DNA of 64,000 nucleotides from Escherichia phage vB_EcoM_ESCO10. The stretch lies in sequence record OM386655.1. One strand, given 5' to 3'. The translations under genes and the position numbers were made by a program. The first letter of the stretch is position 1. Each line of letters opens with the position of its first letter. Under the pieces are notes generated by a model that was given only the letters and a program-made list of their open reading frames with translations, was not told the origin of the DNA and did no database searches. Below, piece after piece: positions 2,529 to 63,046 of the stretch.

Positions 2529-3509
2529 TTATTTTAAAAGTGTAACTTCAGCAATTTCAGCCCAATCATTAGAATCAGTAGCAATGAAATCAGCCAAATA
2601 GAGGGCGGTACGCAATGAAACATTACGCAAACGTGATACATTAGCCTTCATCCATGAGAGTGCCTGGTAAGTCTGAGCGTCAGTCAGACCACGCTTCTGC
2701 ATCATATCTGTAGACAGGATAACGTCTTCAACACGAACCATAATCTCTTCGTTAGAGTGAACACCCAGGTCTAAGTAAACTGAACGTGATACTAAAGCTT
2801 GGAGATGCGGAGAAAGTTTAGTTCCACGTTCCAATTCACGGTCAATATCAACGTTAGTGATGAATACGACGGTGCCTTCATACTCGAATTCTTTATCGAT
2901 ATTTTTATCATCAAGATAAGAACTTGAAGTGCTCCAGCATACCTTACGTTTCTCACCGGTGTCCAATGCCGCTTTCAGAAGGTTCAGGATATCCATGTCA
3001 GAGAATACATCAACATCATCGATAAGAAGAACACTATTAGGGCCGCGGTTATTCCAAAGCTGCTCGTAAAGACCGATTCCACTAATCTTTCCGTTGATTG
3101 ATTTATATTCGATAGTTTCATTTTCGTGGGCATTCTGTAATGCTTTATCCAATGAATATGTTTTACCAATACCTGCGGCACCAGAGATGATAAGGGAACG
3201 AATTTTACCATCGATGATTCCATTAGTCATCATGTTCATTACTTTAAAACGTTTGTTGATGCGGTGTTTCATTTCGTCCTGGGATTCAGTTAAGACGGCA
3301 GGGGTTTCAACACCTTCAGTTTCGATATCAGATTTGAACACCCATACACCACGCTCTACACCATCAATCTGAACAAAGACCTTACCATCGCCGAGGTGGG
3401 CTTCTGATTCATGAATTTTATTAGGGAACCAGGTTTTACCTGAACTCATGAACGTACCAGAGATTTCGTTACCGCGGTAGATGCCTTTGTTGATTTTGAT
3501 AGTTAACAT
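2529..3509 (-). CDS. P-loop NTPase (AAA-like) with ~100-aa N-terminal extension
   Basis: Walker A GAAGIGKT and Walker B LLIDDVD; start moved from GTG 3524 to ATG 3509 behind AAGGA SD; early-promoter cassette upstream. Confidence 0.6.
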   Translation of the reverse strand: MLTIKINKGIYRGNEISGTFMSSGKTWFPNKIHESEAHLGDGKVFVQIDGVERGVWVFKSDIETEGVETPAVLTESQDEMKHRINKRFKVMNMMTNGIIDGKIRSLIISGAAGIGKTYSLDKALQNAHENETIEYKSINGKISGIGLYEQLWNNRGPNSVLLIDDVDVFSDMDILNLLKAALDTGEKRKVCWSTSSSYLDDKNIDKEFEYEGTVVFITNVDIDRELERGTKLSPHLQALVSRSVYLDLGVHSNEEIMVRVEDVILSTDMMQKRGLTDAQTYQALSWMKANVSRLRNVSLRTALYLADFIATDSNDWAEIAEVTLLK

Positions 3510-3544
3510 TTTATTATCCTTCACTCATTTGTTTTGATAGGTCT

Positions 3545-3573
3545 ATCTTAACACGATTAATCAGGTTGTAAAC
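3545..3573 (-). promoter_or_regulatory. early promoter (GTTTAC -35, TAAGAT -10)
   Basis: GTTTAC at 3568..3573, 17-nt spacer, TAAGAT at 3545..3550; conserved leader TAGACCTATCAAAAC. Confidence 0.5.
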
Positions 3574-3592
3574 AATTTTTTGCACTAAACCC

Positions 3593-3618
3593 AAAAAAAG
3601 GAACCCGAAGGTTCCTTG
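3593..3618 (-). terminator. rho-independent terminator
   Basis: Minus-strand hairpin AGGAACC-TTCG-GGTTCCT followed by a U7 run, directly after the stop of gene 3621..3905. Confidence 0.7.
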
Positions 3619-3620
3619 TA

Positions 3621-3905
3621 TTATTTCTTACAACCTACATATTTAGGCATATGGCAGAAAACAGAATCGGTAACTACTCGACCTTTGGCCCATGCTTCCT
3701 GTGCTTTACCGTGAGTAGTATTCACATAGCTGGATTTAATATTCTCGATACCTTGAGAATGTGATGCGTGTGCAGAACCATTAGAAGGACCTGCTGACTG
3801 ACTTGAACCTTGACCGCCCGGGCCTGATGTGCCTTCAGTAGCCAGTACACCAAAAGACATAACAGCGGCCAACAGGCCTATAGCCACTTTTAATTTTAAT
3901 TTCAT
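3621..3905 (-). CDS. small secreted protein (signal peptide, Gly/Ser-rich)
   Basis: N-terminal MKLKLKVAIGLLAAVMSFGVLA; AAAGGTG SD; hairpin+T-run terminator just downstream. Confidence 0.6.
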   Translation of the reverse strand: MKLKLKVAIGLLAAVMSFGVLATEGTSGPGGQGSSQSAGPSNGSAHASHSQGIENIKSSYVNTTHGKAQEAWAKGRVVTDSVFCHMPKYVGCKK

Positions 3906-3924
3906 ATTTTCACCTTTTATTAAC

Positions 3925-4137
3925 TCAACATTGAGTAAGATTATTGTATACTAAAGTTTTAAAGCATTTAAATAGCGCTCCAATAATTATGGAAGCGGAT
4001 ATCATTGATTGCCCAGTTAACAAACCTGCGAGTTTGCTTGGGAGTTGGTTTACATATGTACTTATTGTTGATTCGTCTGCCGGTTTCCCGACAGACTGCT
4101 TCGAGATACCAGCGCCGACCTTTATTGGGTCTTCCAT
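3925..4137 (-). CDS. hypothetical small protein
   Basis: 70-aa ORF in a gap between better-supported genes; weak SD; competing overlapping ORFs. Confidence 0.3.
   Translation of the reverse strand: MEDPIKVGAGISKQSVGKPADESTISTYVNQLPSKLAGLLTGQSMISASIIIGALFKCFKTLVYNNLTQC
3943..3966 (-). promoter_or_regulatory. putative MotA-dependent middle promoter
   Basis: Minus-strand TGCTTTA box (3960..3966), 11-nt spacer, TACAAT -10 (3943..3948), upstream of gene 3621..3905. Confidence 0.4.
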
Positions 4138-4163
4138 ATGATAAGAAGACCTTCATTTCTTCA

Positions 4164-5174
4164 TTAACGATAATAGGAATTGTGGTTGTCAAGATATACC
4201 TCTTCAACAAACTTGTCCCAGAACTTCATGTCTACCTTATCGGGCATACCGTTCTTAGCCGCCCAGACGGCATTGGTTTCGACTTCATCGACGATTGCTT
4301 CAAGTTCAGCTTGTACATCTTTAAAAGCGTGTAGGCCTTGTTTGATTTCAAGGATAAATGGAGCCGTACGTAAAGGATATTGGAGATCGCCGGTTTGGTA
4401 AATTTCTTTCAACTGGTATCCAGCACGATAAGCATGGCTCAGAGCTTTCCAGTCAATACCTTCATTGGCTTCGGCCTTACGAGCACGCTCACCGTATTCG
4501 GCATCGAGCTTATTCAGAGATTGCTTGAGCTCGATTAATGACAAAGTGGTCTGGTATTTGCGTCCTAAGACAGTATAGAACGTTTGTGGGCCGGTTTTCT
4601 CATGGTTATGGAATACCCATTCACAGAATTCGTTTTCAGGGAGTCGATGCTTAATATCTTCAACTTTAGTACGACGTTGTTTAGTCGAACCATCTTCTTG
4701 GTAGTCAACCCACTGTTCAGGAATCTGGTTAACAATTGACAGTACACCACGTAATGCAGCTAAACGAGAACCCTTAACACCATACTTAGAAGCTTGCTTA
4801 CGGACGTACCCTAAATATGCTTTCATGTTAGTTGTATAGAACCGAGAACGGTTGTCTTGGATAAATTTCCATACATCTGGTAAATCGGATTTGACTACCA
4901 GGTTAGCCGGAGTATGAATCATATCCAGAGCTACAGTTTCACCTTCAGCGGCCAGTTTAAAGAAATATTTAAGGCTGTAAAGCTCGTGGTCAACATCGTC
5001 TTTAGTGTTTTTGGATGCCGTGTTATTCGTGTTCAAGTTGGTATGGTTCATAGCCGTACCCAACAGAATATCACGCGGGTGTGGAACAAAGATTTCCTTA
5101 AAATCGATATCAGATTCCGGAGTACTTGTTCCATAAAGATGGCTACCGAAGTAGCCCTTCATAACTGTTCTCAT
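4164..5174 (-). CDS. putative nucleotidyltransferase (Pol-beta-type NTase signature)
   Basis: GSHLYGTSTPESDIDF fits G[SG]-x(9-13)-DxD; ATGA overlap with upstream stop; GAGG SD. Confidence 0.45.
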   Translation of the reverse strand: MRTVMKGYFGSHLYGTSTPESDIDFKEIFVPHPRDILLGTAMNHTNLNTNNTASKNTKDDVDHELYSLKYFFKLAAEGETVALDMIHTPANLVVKSDLPDVWKFIQDNRSRFYTTNMKAYLGYVRKQASKYGVKGSRLAALRGVLSIVNQIPEQWVDYQEDGSTKQRRTKVEDIKHRLPENEFCEWVFHNHEKTGPQTFYTVLGRKYQTTLSLIELKQSLNKLDAEYGERARKAEANEGIDWKALSHAYRAGYQLKEIYQTGDLQYPLRTAPFILEIKQGLHAFKDVQAELEAIVDEVETNAVWAAKNGMPDKVDMKFWDKFVEEVYLDNHNSYYR

Positions 5175-5623
5175 TTCTTCGCCTCAAAATGGATTACCGG
5201 ACAGACCTTAGATTTACGAGCTTTGATATATTGAATGAAAACGTTTTCTTTAGTTTCTCTGCCTTCACGCTCAGCTTTAATTCGTTCCCATTCCTTTTCT
5301 TCTTTACGTGTATCGTACCAGGACCATAAATTCATCAGACCATACACTAAACCAAATGCTACCGCCAGAATAATAGCCATTGTAGCCAGTCCTAAAATAA
5401 ACCCTAACCCTAAACCAACAGGAATACTTAATACAAAGAACTGGTCTAATACACCAGCACCTGCAACAGTTAAGGCGAAGATTGTACTACCTGCAATCAC
5501 AGAACAAATAAAGCAGGCCCATACAATTTTCCAGAAGTAAGCACATAAAGAGTGTGGTCGAGAATAATGGCTATAAAAACGGTCGTGTAATTTAGTGTGC
5601 CAGGCGTTTTCATTAATAATCAT
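5171..5623 (-). CDS. membrane protein (2-3 TM helices), charged C-terminal tail
   Basis: Long hydrophobic core then RKEEKEWERIKAEREGRETKE; AAGGAA SD. Confidence 0.55.
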   Translation of the reverse strand: MIINENAWHTKLHDRFYSHYSRPHSLCAYFWKIVWACFICSVIAGSTIFALTVAGAGVLDQFFVLSIPVGLGLGFILGLATMAIILAVAFGLVYGLMNLWSWYDTRKEEKEWERIKAEREGRETKENVFIQYIKARKSKVCPVIHFEAKK

Positions 5624-5632
5624 TGTAATTCC

Positions 5633-6187
5633 TTAAGAGTTCATAGTTGGGATAATAGTGTTCAGGTATTTTACCAGAACTTTTAATTCGTCTTTAGTGA
5701 ATACTACTTCAGCTTCACCGTCGTGGGTCTGGATGATAGATAACATATCGCGACCTTGATGTTGGTAGACACTGAATTCAGTATTATAATCACCTTCTTC
5801 ATCACCTTCAAAGGTTTCGCTTGAATGCATAATAGCATCACAACCAGGGATTTTCCACTCGAGCTCAGGTACACACTCTTCTTGGAACAGTTTAAAAATT
5901 TTCTCTAAAAATTCTGAACGGTTTTTAATGGATAAACAAGCCCATTCGGTTTCCAGATTAAAGCCATTTTCACCTCGATACAACCAAGCCATATCTTCAT
6001 CGTTAATTTTAAAGACCCGATTATGAGTTCGAATATACTGCTCTGCATCAATAACAGACAAGTCGTACAGGTTCTGAATATCCTGAATGGTCAAAACGAC
6101 TGTATCATCTTCTTGTTTAAGCACGATTGCATTATCAATTACATCGGCAGTCAGGTCACCAAACAACCCAGATTTTTCAATAATCAT
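5633..6187 (-). CDS. hypothetical acidic protein
   Basis: 184-aa ORF; GAGGAAA SD. Confidence 0.55.
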   Translation of the reverse strand: MIIEKSGLFGDLTADVIDNAIVLKQEDDTVVLTIQDIQNLYDLSVIDAEQYIRTHNRVFKINDEDMAWLYRGENGFNLETEWACLSIKNRSEFLEKIFKLFQEECVPELEWKIPGCDAIMHSSETFEGDEEGDYNTEFSVYQHQGRDMLSIIQTHDGEAEVVFTKDELKVLVKYLNTIIPTMNS

Positions 6188-6198
6188 TTTCTATTTCC

Positions 6199-6381
6199 TC
6201 ATTTCACATTTTGTTTAATAAAATTTAGTAATTCTTTAAGGGCCTTATCTTCTTCTTTAGAAAGCCTAGTACAATCATCAACCGAGTATTGGTGACAAAA
6301 TGCGGTTTCGAATCTAGCAACTGTACCTGCATAGGCCTCGATAAGCTCTTCAAGCTTTAAGTGCTTTTCTTTAGTTTTCAT
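6199..6381 (-). CDS. hypothetical protein
   Basis: 60-aa ORF; GGTGA SD. Confidence 0.4.
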   Translation of the reverse strand: MKTKEKHLKLEELIEAYAGTVARFETAFCHQYSVDDCTRLSKEEDKALKELLNFIKQNVK

Positions 6382-6384
6382 AAA

Positions 6385-6594
6385 TCACCGGTTATGTTTT
6401 AAAATACTATAAAGCTCTTCAACTTGGCTCGCATCCAGATAAATGACCTCGTCATCTTGTTCTAGGACAATCCCACCCTTAACAATATTCCACTCTACTA
6501 CTTCAACAGTCATATCATCACCAGAGCCTGCTAATGTTTCAGGTTCTAAAACAATAATACCATCTTCAGAATTACCACTCGGGTCATATAACAT
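6385..6594 (-). CDS. hypothetical small acidic protein
   Basis: Track ORF 6385..6669; start placed at ATG 6594 behind GAGGAAA SD; 5' boundary uncertain. Confidence 0.4.
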   Translation of the reverse strand: MLYDPSGNSEDGIIVLEPETLAGSGDDMTVEVVEWNIVKGGIVLEQDDEVIYLDASQVEELYSILKHNR

Positions 6595-6685
6595 TACAGT
6601 TTCCTCGCTAACCATGAAAAGAATAAACCAATTAAAACAGGCCCTACAGCCATTGTTAACCAAGCCCAAGGTTCAAGATAGTAAA

Positions 6686-6943
6686 TCATCTCATGCTCCT
6701 ATGCCAACAGTTACGTGGCTCGCGTTTAAAAATTTCATCATGCATCGCTTGACAACCTACACAGTATATCACACCCTTGATAGCTTGACGTCGTGCTTCA
6801 GGAATCTCTTCATCACAATCAAAACAATATTCAGCGGATTCACGTTCAACCGCTACTTGCTTACGAGCGTGTACTATAGCAGCCTGGACGACGGCTTCCA
6901 TTTCGAGCTGTTCGGCTCCATCCTTCGCAAATCCAACAGCCAT
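6686..6943 (-). CDS. TraR/DksA-type C4 zinc-finger protein
   Basis: CFDC...CVGC (CxxC-x17-CxxC) in an 85-aa protein. Confidence 0.55.
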   Translation of the reverse strand: MAVGFAKDGAEQLEMEAVVQAAIVHARKQVAVERESAEYCFDCDEEIPEARRQAIKGVIYCVGCQAMHDEIFKREPRNCWHRSMR

Positions 6944-7125
6944 TATATTTTTATCTCGTTTAGATAAGCGACCAATTTTTCTTTAGAATTCTTTAAGTCA
7001 CGGTTACATGCCTCTATCCCGGAGTATGAATATCCTTCGCAATGTTCAACAGCCAGTTCATAAGAGGTAATTTCAATATCACGAGCGAGTTTAATAATTT
7101 TTTCAATCTGTTCAGTGGTTAACAT
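6943..7125 (-). CDS. hypothetical protein
   Basis: 60-aa ORF abutting upstream stop. Confidence 0.45.
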   Translation of the reverse strand: MLTTEQIEKIIKLARDIEITSYELAVEHCEGYSYSGIEACNRDLKNSKEKLVAYLNEIKI

Positions 7126-7129
7126 AATA

Positions 7130-7366
7130 TCACCAGTATTTGTTGATGGTAGAAATTAATTCTTGGGCTTGAGTAGTCTTCAGCTTACACCCACATCCAT
7201 TTAATGTATCTTTAAGGAGCCATGGCTCCTTGAGCTCGTCCTTTTCTAGACGAATTCTGTATCCTCGGTAATCAGCAAAGATACTTCGGTCATCAAATAT
7301 CTTAATCTCAAGGAGACGGTTATTGATTTCGTATTCCAACGAAACCATAGTACTTGTAAGTTTCAT
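7130..7366 (-). CDS. hypothetical protein
   Basis: 78-aa ORF; GAGGAGAA SD; early-promoter cassette upstream. Confidence 0.55.
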   Translation of the reverse strand: MKLTSTMVSLEYEINNRLLEIKIFDDRSIFADYRGYRIRLEKDELKEPWLLKDTLNGCGCKLKTTQAQELISTINKYW

Positions 7367-7458: not shown

Positions 7459-7463
7459 TTTGA

Positions 7464-62038: not shown

Positions 62039-63046
62039 TTATTTGGATACTAATTCAATCCACACAGCTCGTAGCGTATCTTTAACACACTCAATGAGCT
62101 GCTTTTTAACTTCAACAGGATTTTCTGCATCGGTTAATTCTAATTCTTCACGGGACGCCTCTTCCAAAATATCTTGGACTGTTAGTCCCATTACCTTTCC
62201 GAAATCCTTAGGCGTTACTTCACCAATCTTACTGATAACATTGTTAATACGGTTAACAGTCACATAATCAGTGAATTGCCACATCAAGTCCATGTCATCT
62301 TGGGACAACACAACAGCAGCCTTGATAGGCTTATCAGACTTTTTCTTTTCACTGAATTTAGAGTTCTTACATTTAATCGCTACACGATTTCCATTTGGAA
62401 GCCAGGTAGGAACATCAGGTTTCAGTACAAAGCCTTCAGCCGTAAATACTTTGCCTTCAACCTTTGGAATAAAATCAGTCGAGTTTGCGATAGTCAGGCC
62501 TGCATTATCCACTGCAAAATTGTAATCAGGAACCACAGAATCAAAATCATTAGGGAGCTTAATAAGGTCTTCAAAGCTACCAGTAGCCAGACATGGAGCA
62601 ACTTTAAACTTATGGATAATGCAGAATGCTTCCATCAATGTATCAGTCAGAACAGATTCTGTGCCGTCGTCTTTAGTAACGCGGATATCGAACACATAAA
62701 AATCTTTATCACCATAATCAACATTCTTCTGAATACCTGAACCGGCGAACTCACCATAAATCTGGTACGACTGATAATCAATCGATTCAATTAGATGCTG
62801 AACAGATTTAATAGAATCAGCATAATTCTTTAAAACAATTTCATAGCCATAGAAATCTTCGGCTGGGAGAATTGGGCCAGTGCGCTTGGCGCATGTGACT
62901 GCGTCACGTTCTATGATTAGACTAAAGTTCGTACCATGAATCTTTTCACGAGCTACCCATTCACCATCGGTCATACCATGGGTACGGAGTTTTTCAATGA
63001 ACTTATTGTTGTAGTGGTTTTCCAGACTGCTATATTTCTTGAACAT
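62039..63046 (-). CDS. rnlB: RNA ligase 2
   Basis: 335 aa, highly similar to T4 Rnl2 ([19 protein letters not shown]...[13 protein letters not shown]... with KxHG ligase motif). Confidence 0.9.

Follow-up and report, generated by a model that had tools for sequence, protein, structure and literature searches.

What does a nucleotidyltransferase gene do beside the gene of a small membrane protein in a T-even phage? The question arises from three neighbouring genes on the minus strand of Escherichia phage vB_EcoM_ESCO10 (sequence record OM386655.1), of which a stretch of 64,000 nucleotides (nt), here called the window, was analysed. The original prediction for positions 4164–6187, made from the DNA letters alone, had described an acidic protein, a membrane protein and a Polβ-type nucleotidyltransferase (NTase). 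It had pointed to a similar arrangement in nucleotide-signalling defence and exclusion systems and, as a fallback, to a conserved T-even accessory gene. All three open reading frames (ORFs) were found at the predicted coordinates, 5633–6187 (184 amino acids, aa), 5171–5623 (150 aa) and 4164–5174 (336 aa). They are real genes and not chance ORFs, since they match PHROG profiles with E-values of 1e-132, 6e-54 and 1e-66, and since by tblastn 1,547 phage records have a homolog of the NTase and 1,266 one of the membrane protein. It was the fallback that turned out to be right: the genes are nrdC.11, mobD.1 and a membrane gene annotated as 'RB69 ORF104c-like'. Because nrdC.11 belongs to RlaP, a family of enzymes that extend RNA ends, we are dealing with a known kind of gene and not with a new defence-like module. 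The assignment to NrdC.11 and RlaP is already known from public annotation and the recent literature. At the DNA level the window shares 93–94% identity with Escherichia phages VR5, VR25 and TH22 and about 83% with IME08, therefore the source phage was placed in the genus Dhakavirus, the JS98-like T-even phages.

NrdC.11 is a nucleotidyltransferase of the RlaP family

The 336-aa protein (4164–5174, minus strand) is 82.4% identical to NrdC.11 of phage T4 over residues 1–336. It matches the Pfam family RlaP (PF10127) with 42.8 bits at a cutoff of 23 (E 6.7e-11). The same domain was found in 120 out of 120 NrdC.11 homologs among the matches listed, and a bacterial homolog of the T4 type passes the threshold as well. 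Among the 3,081 cluster representatives that an exhaustive search with NrdC.11 yielded, 798 have E-values below 1e-30, and most are full-length, with about 320 aa. Three parts can be distinguished: an N-terminal NTase domain, a variable β-rich insert (residues ~150–210) and a conserved C-terminal helical domain. The same architecture is seen in the structural model (predicted local distance difference test score, pLDDT, 89), according to which the fold is that of a Polβ-type NTase, with an α/β NTase domain preceding the insert and the helices.

The catalytic motifs hG[GS] and DxD are represented by G10-S11-x10-D22-x-D24 (GSHLYGTSTPESDIDF), encoded at 5103–5147 on the minus strand. Conservation was assessed in 145 representatives, each at most 55% identical to the query, and reaches 100% for G10, 99% for S11 and 100% for both D22 and D24. 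A further pair, D60-x-D62 (codons at 4989–4997, minus strand), lies at the start of the model strand 61–67; D60 and D62 are conserved in 96% each and D84 in 97%. We chose D60-x-D62 as the probable source of the third catalytic carboxylate, judged by conservation and the position of the strand. In our alignments G10/S11 and D22/D24 are invariant in both A2 and A4, and D60/D62 in A2. The C-terminal half has a conserved set of its own, several members of which are basic (Y227, G228, R230, D241, W242, K243, H247, R250, P267, K278 and G280). Together, the PF10127 match, the conserved aspartates and the NTase fold of the model confirm the Polβ-type NTase that had been proposed from the motif. The two checks suggested at the time, conservation of the active-site aspartates among homologs and structural placement, both came out in its favour, HalB being the nearest solved fold.

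Searches of the PDB sequences with the single protein, a full-length profile and a profile of the N-terminal domain gave no meaningful match; an editosome TUTase appeared at the level of the motif only, with an E-value of about 1. No matches were obtained in NCBIfam. With the minimal or KNTase-type NTases (ANT(4'), LinB, MNT antitoxins, 3c18) NrdC.11 has no sequence-level relationship, and the phage locus also differs from theirs in having neither a HEPN partner nor an antibiotic-resistance context.

Public names of NrdC.11 homologs vary. Many are called 'thioredoxin' and a few 'HNH homing endonuclease' or 'ArsR family regulator', which look like propagated annotation errors that go back to the name of the gene, nrdC.11, or to the genes around it.

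A perfect hairpin with a UUCG tetraloop, GGCTAC-TTCG-GTAGCC, is located 18 nt into nrdC.11 (5141–5156, minus strand). It is exactly preserved in 16 related loci and kept by G·U wobble pairs in some, but is degenerate in T4. A conserved regulatory element was considered and set aside, as the hairpin lies over the codons for G-Y-F-G-S and is not preserved in T4. Most probably these conserved codons give rise to it as a by-product, though it may still affect translation or mRNA stability.

A probable role in the refilling of trimmed RNA ends

What is known of the family comes from bacteria. PfRlaP and PaRlaP of Pseudomonas add one or two nucleoside monophosphates (NMPs) to the 3'-OH of RNA and do not act on DNA or protein (bioRxiv 10.64898/2025.12.29.696909). 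On an annealed mimic of a cleaved tRNA the 3' end at the break site is preferred over the acceptor 3' end, and RlaP restores the aminoacylation of a repaired tRNA that is short of one nucleotide (bioRxiv 10.64898/2025.12.29.696909). The enzyme was proposed as an antidote to 'smart' ribotoxins such as RloC, and the RlaPs of phages were predicted to act likewise in a survey of jumbo phages (PMC7824862); according to both sources RlaP would replace the nucleotide that RloC removes (bioRxiv 10.64898/2025.12.29.696909; PMC7824862).

NrdC.11 shares with PfRlaP and PaRlaP, which are encoded between rtcB and rtcA, the Pfam family and the three-Asp Polβ catalytic core. To judge by its model it would also share their order of domains, with the NTase domain at the N-terminus and the helical one at the C-terminus; in the crystal structure of PfRlaP these two form a cleft. 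It differs from canonical RlaP (~255 aa) in being about 80 residues longer, in its poorly conserved β-rich insert and in falling into a separate sequence cluster ('cluster 5'). Another difference from the bacterial proteins is that the phage gene has no adjacent ligase in this genome and that its activity is a predicted one.

Homologs of the T4 type exist in bacteria too. From a scan of one genome per prokaryotic species we obtained 80 bacterial loci with full-length T4-type homologs of 32–50% identity. Genes for RNA repair are found next to some of them: RtcB in 10 loci, Hen1 and Ro60/TROVE in 4 each and RtcA in 2. At least one of these lies within 5 kb in 14 out of 80 loci, and in 9 of the 44 for which the flanks are complete. 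Thus, T4-type homologs do occur within RtcB/RtcA/Hen1/Ro60 operons. One example, verified with Pfam, is a Nitrosospira operon with the order Ro60/TROVE – RtcB – RtcA – T4-type RlaP – canonical RlaP – Hen1 – AAA. As in this operon, a canonical RlaP paralog (~255 aa) is located near the T4-type protein (~320 aa), often in tandem, in 24 of the 80 loci (for instance at 5001–6743 of locus L092), which suggests different roles of the two types in repair.

The phage lineage provides the partner enzymes. An Rnl2-type RNA ligase, a homolog of rnlB, is encoded in the window itself (62039–63046, minus strand; E 2e-162 in a local jackhmmer search with Pfam-verified Rnl2 seeds) and could serve an RlaP-type enzyme as the partner that seals the break. 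JS98, which belongs to the same lineage, encodes PseT and RnlA.

From the activity of RlaP, the repair-operon context of T4-type homologs and the partner enzymes in the lineage we conclude that NrdC.11 probably refills trimmed RNA 3' ends before sealing. That is, this RlaP-family ortholog would most likely add one or two untemplated nucleotides to the 3'-OH of a broken RNA and so restore a trimmed tRNA. A host anticodon nuclease of the RloC type would cut the anticodon loop of a tRNA and trim it. The tRNA 5' half, the probable substrate of NrdC.11, would then be extended at its 3'-OH by one or two nucleotides in a template-independent manner, and phage Pnkp and RNA ligases could reseal the tRNA at full length. 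The proposed setting is that of T4 healing-and-sealing, in which Pnkp/PseT and Rnl1 counteract PrrC, and of RloC; PseT, RnlA and Rnl2 are all encoded by the lineage. A difference is that the genes are dispersed across the phage genome and that the link to NrdC.11 is proposed from sequence and context. Orthology, family, conserved catalytic residues, NTase fold, the operon context in bacteria and the presence of ligase and Pnkp in the lineage are established here; which RNA the enzyme acts on, how many nucleotides it adds and that it counters nucleotide-removing nucleases are inferred.

Several observations weigh against this function, in which our confidence is moderate. NMP addition was shown for PfRlaP and PaRlaP only. 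The Pfam RlaP match is confined to residues 8–133 of NrdC.11, that is to the NTase domain, and since the T4 type departs from canonical RlaP by the β-rich insert and by the greater length of its C-terminal domain, its substrate could differ. In the published similarity network T4 NrdC.11 is a member of cluster 5, described as RlaP 'of unknown function' (bioRxiv 10.64898/2025.12.29.696909). A recognisable repair neighbour is limited to the above 14 of 80 bacterial homologs, and at the phage locus the NTase gene is not ligase-adjacent, with Rnl2 57 kb away. Finally, under laboratory conditions T4 tolerates a deletion of the segment from nrdC.11 to mobD.3 (PMC9825161), thus any role of NrdC.11 must be conditional.

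The insert and the longer C-terminal domain could also mean that the same enzyme family serves another 3' end here, in the upkeep or repair of the CCA tail of host or phage tRNAs or in the tailing of RNA during host takeover. RlaP discriminates little between nucleoside triphosphates (NTPs), and when given total RNA of E. coli it labels more than one size class, those of full-length tRNA and of rRNA among them (bioRxiv 10.64898/2025.12.29.696909), and the tandem arrangement of both RlaP types in 24 of 80 bacterial loci is consistent with distinct roles. However, the preference of RlaP for the break-site 3' end in the annealed tRNA mimic speaks against the acceptor end as its target, and the genes around T4-type homologs (RtcB, RtcA, Hen1, Ro60) belong to end-healing and end-sealing, not to tRNA maturation. 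We regard such a function as rather unlikely, and prefer the refilling of trimmed tRNA.

The membrane protein and the question of a signalling pair

The 150-aa membrane protein (5171–5623, minus strand) belongs to phrog_944 (5.8e-54). Two or three transmembrane helices and a charged tail had been predicted for it. A hydrophobic block at residues ~25–105 and a tail rich in Lys and Glu are indeed present, but the AlphaFold model (AF2; pLDDT 78) has two helices and not three: they are long, span the membrane and form a hairpin, and a strand at 2–4 pairs with a strand at 145–147. The model would place both termini in the cytoplasm (N-in/C-in), where they may form a small module. The invariant residues W8, C27, Y29 and C141-P142 (alignments A1 and A3) come together on this cytoplasmic side in the model, and the tail has a basic motif, K-A-K-K-S-K-x-C-P. 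No solved structure in the PDB matched the model better than E 6. The T4-style membrane protein PseT.3 was tried as a relative of phrog_944 and ruled out.

Is the membrane protein under the control of its neighbour, by way of a nucleotide or oligonucleotide that the NTase makes as a signal? Such pairs are known as HalB with the HalA channel (Hailong), and as the CD-NTases with membrane effectors of the cyclic-oligonucleotide-based antiphage signalling systems (CBASS). What favours the comparison is the neighbourhood of the two genes and the fact that HalB is the nearest solved fold to the NrdC.11 model, at 10% identity over 148 residues, which is a generic similarity. The distribution of the genes argues otherwise. 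The NTase gene is present and the membrane gene missing in T4, Aeromonas phages and each of the 80 bacterial loci. Conversely, Pseudomonas phage SPA05, whose genome is complete, encodes the membrane protein and nowhere an NTase of the RlaP type. In Hailong the effector HalA is toxic without the NTase HalB. A toxic effector like HalA would have to be accompanied by its NTase in every genome, and since SPA05 has the membrane protein alone a Hailong-like pair was rejected. Furthermore, HalB (~217 aa) lacks a C-terminal domain, whereas NrdC.11 with its 336 aa has one; the two-helix hairpin of 150 aa is unlike HalA; and the locus lies in a lytic phage, not in a bacterial defence island, with its two genes distributed independently. 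The PADLOC scan of the locus matched no model. Pfam and PADLOC gave no match to CD-NTase or SMODS, and neither a CD-NTase nor cGAS or OAS was among the fold matches listed. On distribution, PADLOC, sequence and membrane-protein fold, both a Hailong-like and a CBASS-like pair are thus rejected, and a signalling pair of any such kind appears highly improbable. With it, the analogy to nucleotide-signalling defence or exclusion systems finds no support: no PADLOC model matches, RlaP is a family of RNA repair, and the genes are distributed independently.

The junction between the two genes

How closely is the membrane gene associated with nrdC.11? In 31 related loci from IMG/VR it abuts the NTase gene in 13, lies 0.4–1.7 kb upstream in 12 and is absent from 6, which include T4 and T4-like phages of Aeromonas. 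The membrane protein diverges faster, with 28–40% identity where the NTase keeps 65–82%. In T4, NrdC.11 has the same length as here and the flanks correspond, with mobD.1 (y05I) upstream and nrdC.10 downstream, but a homing endonuclease gene, mobD, stands in place of the membrane gene, and the two extra small ORFs of ESCO10 between nrdC.11 and nrdC.10 (3925–4137 and 3621–3905) are a further difference.

In T4 (locus L002, 3238–4017) and VR26 (locus L005, gap 5234–6001) mobD has inserted where the membrane gene and nrdC.11 meet. VR26 has kept both genes around the inserted mobD, whereas the membrane gene is gone from T4; T2 and some Tequatroviruses hold N-terminal fragments of it only. Tandem duplications of the membrane gene were seen in Acinetobacter phage Acj61 (L054, 3010–3890) and Pseudomonas phage Milchi (L053, 3498–4374). 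A word-indexed profile search with the membrane family returned mostly members from T-even phages and ICP1. For the small ORFs that abut the NTase gene in Vibrio phage K491 and Ochrobactrum phage OC no membership in this family was detected.

The membrane gene beside other RNA-repair enzymes

Outside the T-even nrdC locus, the membrane gene is also found near genes for RNA-repair enzymes, and in every such case it precedes them on the same strand. The genes directly after it in Pakpunavirus encode an Rnl1-type ligase (PF09511) and a P-loop kinase; this pair of enzymes is also encoded on the metagenomic contig L038, two genes further downstream. An RNA ligase of the PF09414/PHA02142 type follows it in Aeromonas phages 25, 31 and 44RR. 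In 44RR the RlaP gene is located elsewhere in the genome and has no membrane gene beside it. Cronobacter phage S13 and contig L044 have the membrane gene one small gene upstream of Rnl2. In SPA05, with a genome of 175 genes, it abuts two of the three repair genes.

These contexts raise the possibility that the two-helix protein tethers repair to the inner membrane, recruiting or regulating RlaP here and ligases elsewhere, so that the overlapping pair, with translational coupling through the ATGA, would be a real two-gene unit. As such, phrog_944 would be a membrane-anchored accessory of phage RNA repair that travels with whichever repair enzyme the phage uses, and would localise or regulate the repair of damaged tRNA. 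In favour of this idea, the gene stands upstream of four kinds of repair enzyme on the same strand in separate lineages (RlaP, Rnl1 with kinase, the PF09414/PHA02142-type ligase and Rnl2). The pairing with RlaP is seen in both enteric and Acinetobacter T4-like phages, and the 44RR gene adjoins a ligase rather than the phage's own RlaP. Repair-linked contexts make up 5 of 16 clade-contexts against 5–9% expected per context, and in SPA05 two of the three repair genes adjoin the membrane gene. A rough binomial test gives P of 0.001–0.01, or 0.005–0.04 when both contexts with Rnl1 are merged into a single one, values that ignore phylogeny and refer to hand-picked clade-contexts.

Against it stand the other 11 of the 16 clade-contexts, in which no recognisable repair gene was found within 3.5 kb of the membrane gene: ICP1-like phages, CC2 and 65, the Yersinia/Erwinia jumbo phages, Milchi, Phynn, phiTY18 and the loci L039, L040, L147, L148 and L155. 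T4 manages without the gene, mobD splits it from nrdC.11 in VR26, none of the 80 bacterial RlaP loci has it, and its product evolves much faster than the NTase. Because the sample was picked by hand and phylogeny is not accounted for, the proximity to repair genes is a lead and not a result, and we consider a membrane-bound accessory of repair a tentative idea, doubtful but worth following. Apart from T-even synteny, no other gene family was found to travel with the membrane gene across clades. We found no description of a membrane-linked component of phage RNA repair in the literature accessible to our search.

On L040, a metagenomic phage contig, the membrane-family gene (3172–7314) is situated between genes for a seryl-tRNA synthetase and a HisRS-like protein, beside a DUF4326 gene; this context is related to tRNA, not to repair.

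Gene order and neighbouring genes

The original prediction regarded the three genes as tightly coupled. As far as the spacing is concerned this holds. The ATGA in which the stop codon of the membrane gene overlaps the start codon of nrdC.11 can be read directly from the sequence at 5171–5174 (minus strand), the gap between the mobD.1 ortholog and the membrane gene measures 9 nt, and each of the three starts is preceded by a motif resembling a Shine-Dalgarno sequence. It is not special to these genes, however, as the flanking ones are packed just as closely. The nearest terminator-like hairpin upstream is at 7461–7436 on the minus strand. Downstream of the NTase gene a bidirectional one, AAGGAACC-TTCG-GGTTCCTT, closes the string at 3598–3617 (both strands). 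Since these are the nearest minus-strand hairpins, at 7461–7436 and 3617–3598, the three genes belong to a longer run of early genes, about ten in number, that extends from ~7420 to 3598. A self-contained operon of three genes was ruled out, as no pair of promoter and terminator brackets them. They are consecutive members of a long T-even early gene string and not a dedicated three-gene system. In T4-style annotation, including that of JS98 and IME08, mobD.1 is followed by the 'RB69 ORF104c-like' membrane gene, nrdC.11 and, downstream, nrdC.10.

The 184-aa protein (5633–6187, minus strand) is the mobD.1 ortholog, annotated as such in JS98 and IME08. It carries both domains of the y05I family above the Pfam thresholds, T4_y05I_N (3.9e-30) and T4_y05I_C (1.4e-20), with scores of 104.9 bits for PF24449 and 73.9 bits for PF24448. 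Pfam labels the family a putative transcription factor. Its acidic nature, as predicted, is evident from an isoelectric point of 4.31 and 37 D+E against 15 K+R. Further upstream in the same string, a DksA/TraR-type C4 zinc-finger protein of 85 aa is encoded at 6686–6943 (minus strand); in Acinetobacter phage Acj61 a homolog lies between nrdC.11 and nrdC.10.

The region between nrdC.11 and nrdC.10 contains the two small minus-strand ORFs mentioned above. The 94-aa protein has an N-terminus resembling a signal peptide, belongs to phrog_2243 and occurs in VR25 and in locus L016; the 70-aa one has a single hydrophobic segment and occurs in VR25, VR26 and three others. Since they are present in few relatives, we take this gap to be a variable insertion spot. 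The 3598–3617 hairpin is followed by a promoter-like site at 3572–3545, ahead of nrdC.10. The nrdC.10 ortholog itself (2529–3524, minus strand), located downstream of nrdC.11 in most related loci, encodes a P-loop ATPase (phrog_1250, 2e-162, and weak AAA matches). According to the PHROG alignment the gene probably begins not at the GTG given as its start (3524) but at an ATG five codons further downstream. NrdC.10 was compared with the AAA protein of the bacterial repair operon; there is no similarity, and homology of the two was ruled out.

Significance for the T-even phages

T-even phages are the classic model of the arms race between tRNA cleavage and repair, with PrrC on one side and Pnkp and Rnl1 on the other. 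Nucleases of the RloC type are thought to defeat this repair by the removal of a nucleotide, and NrdC.11 is an obvious candidate for the counter-measure. This hypothesis is readily testable and, together with the lead on the membrane protein, is the main source of the modest interest of the locus. If the latter were true, the recurrent small membrane protein would represent a previously unrecognised, membrane-linked part of phage RNA repair.

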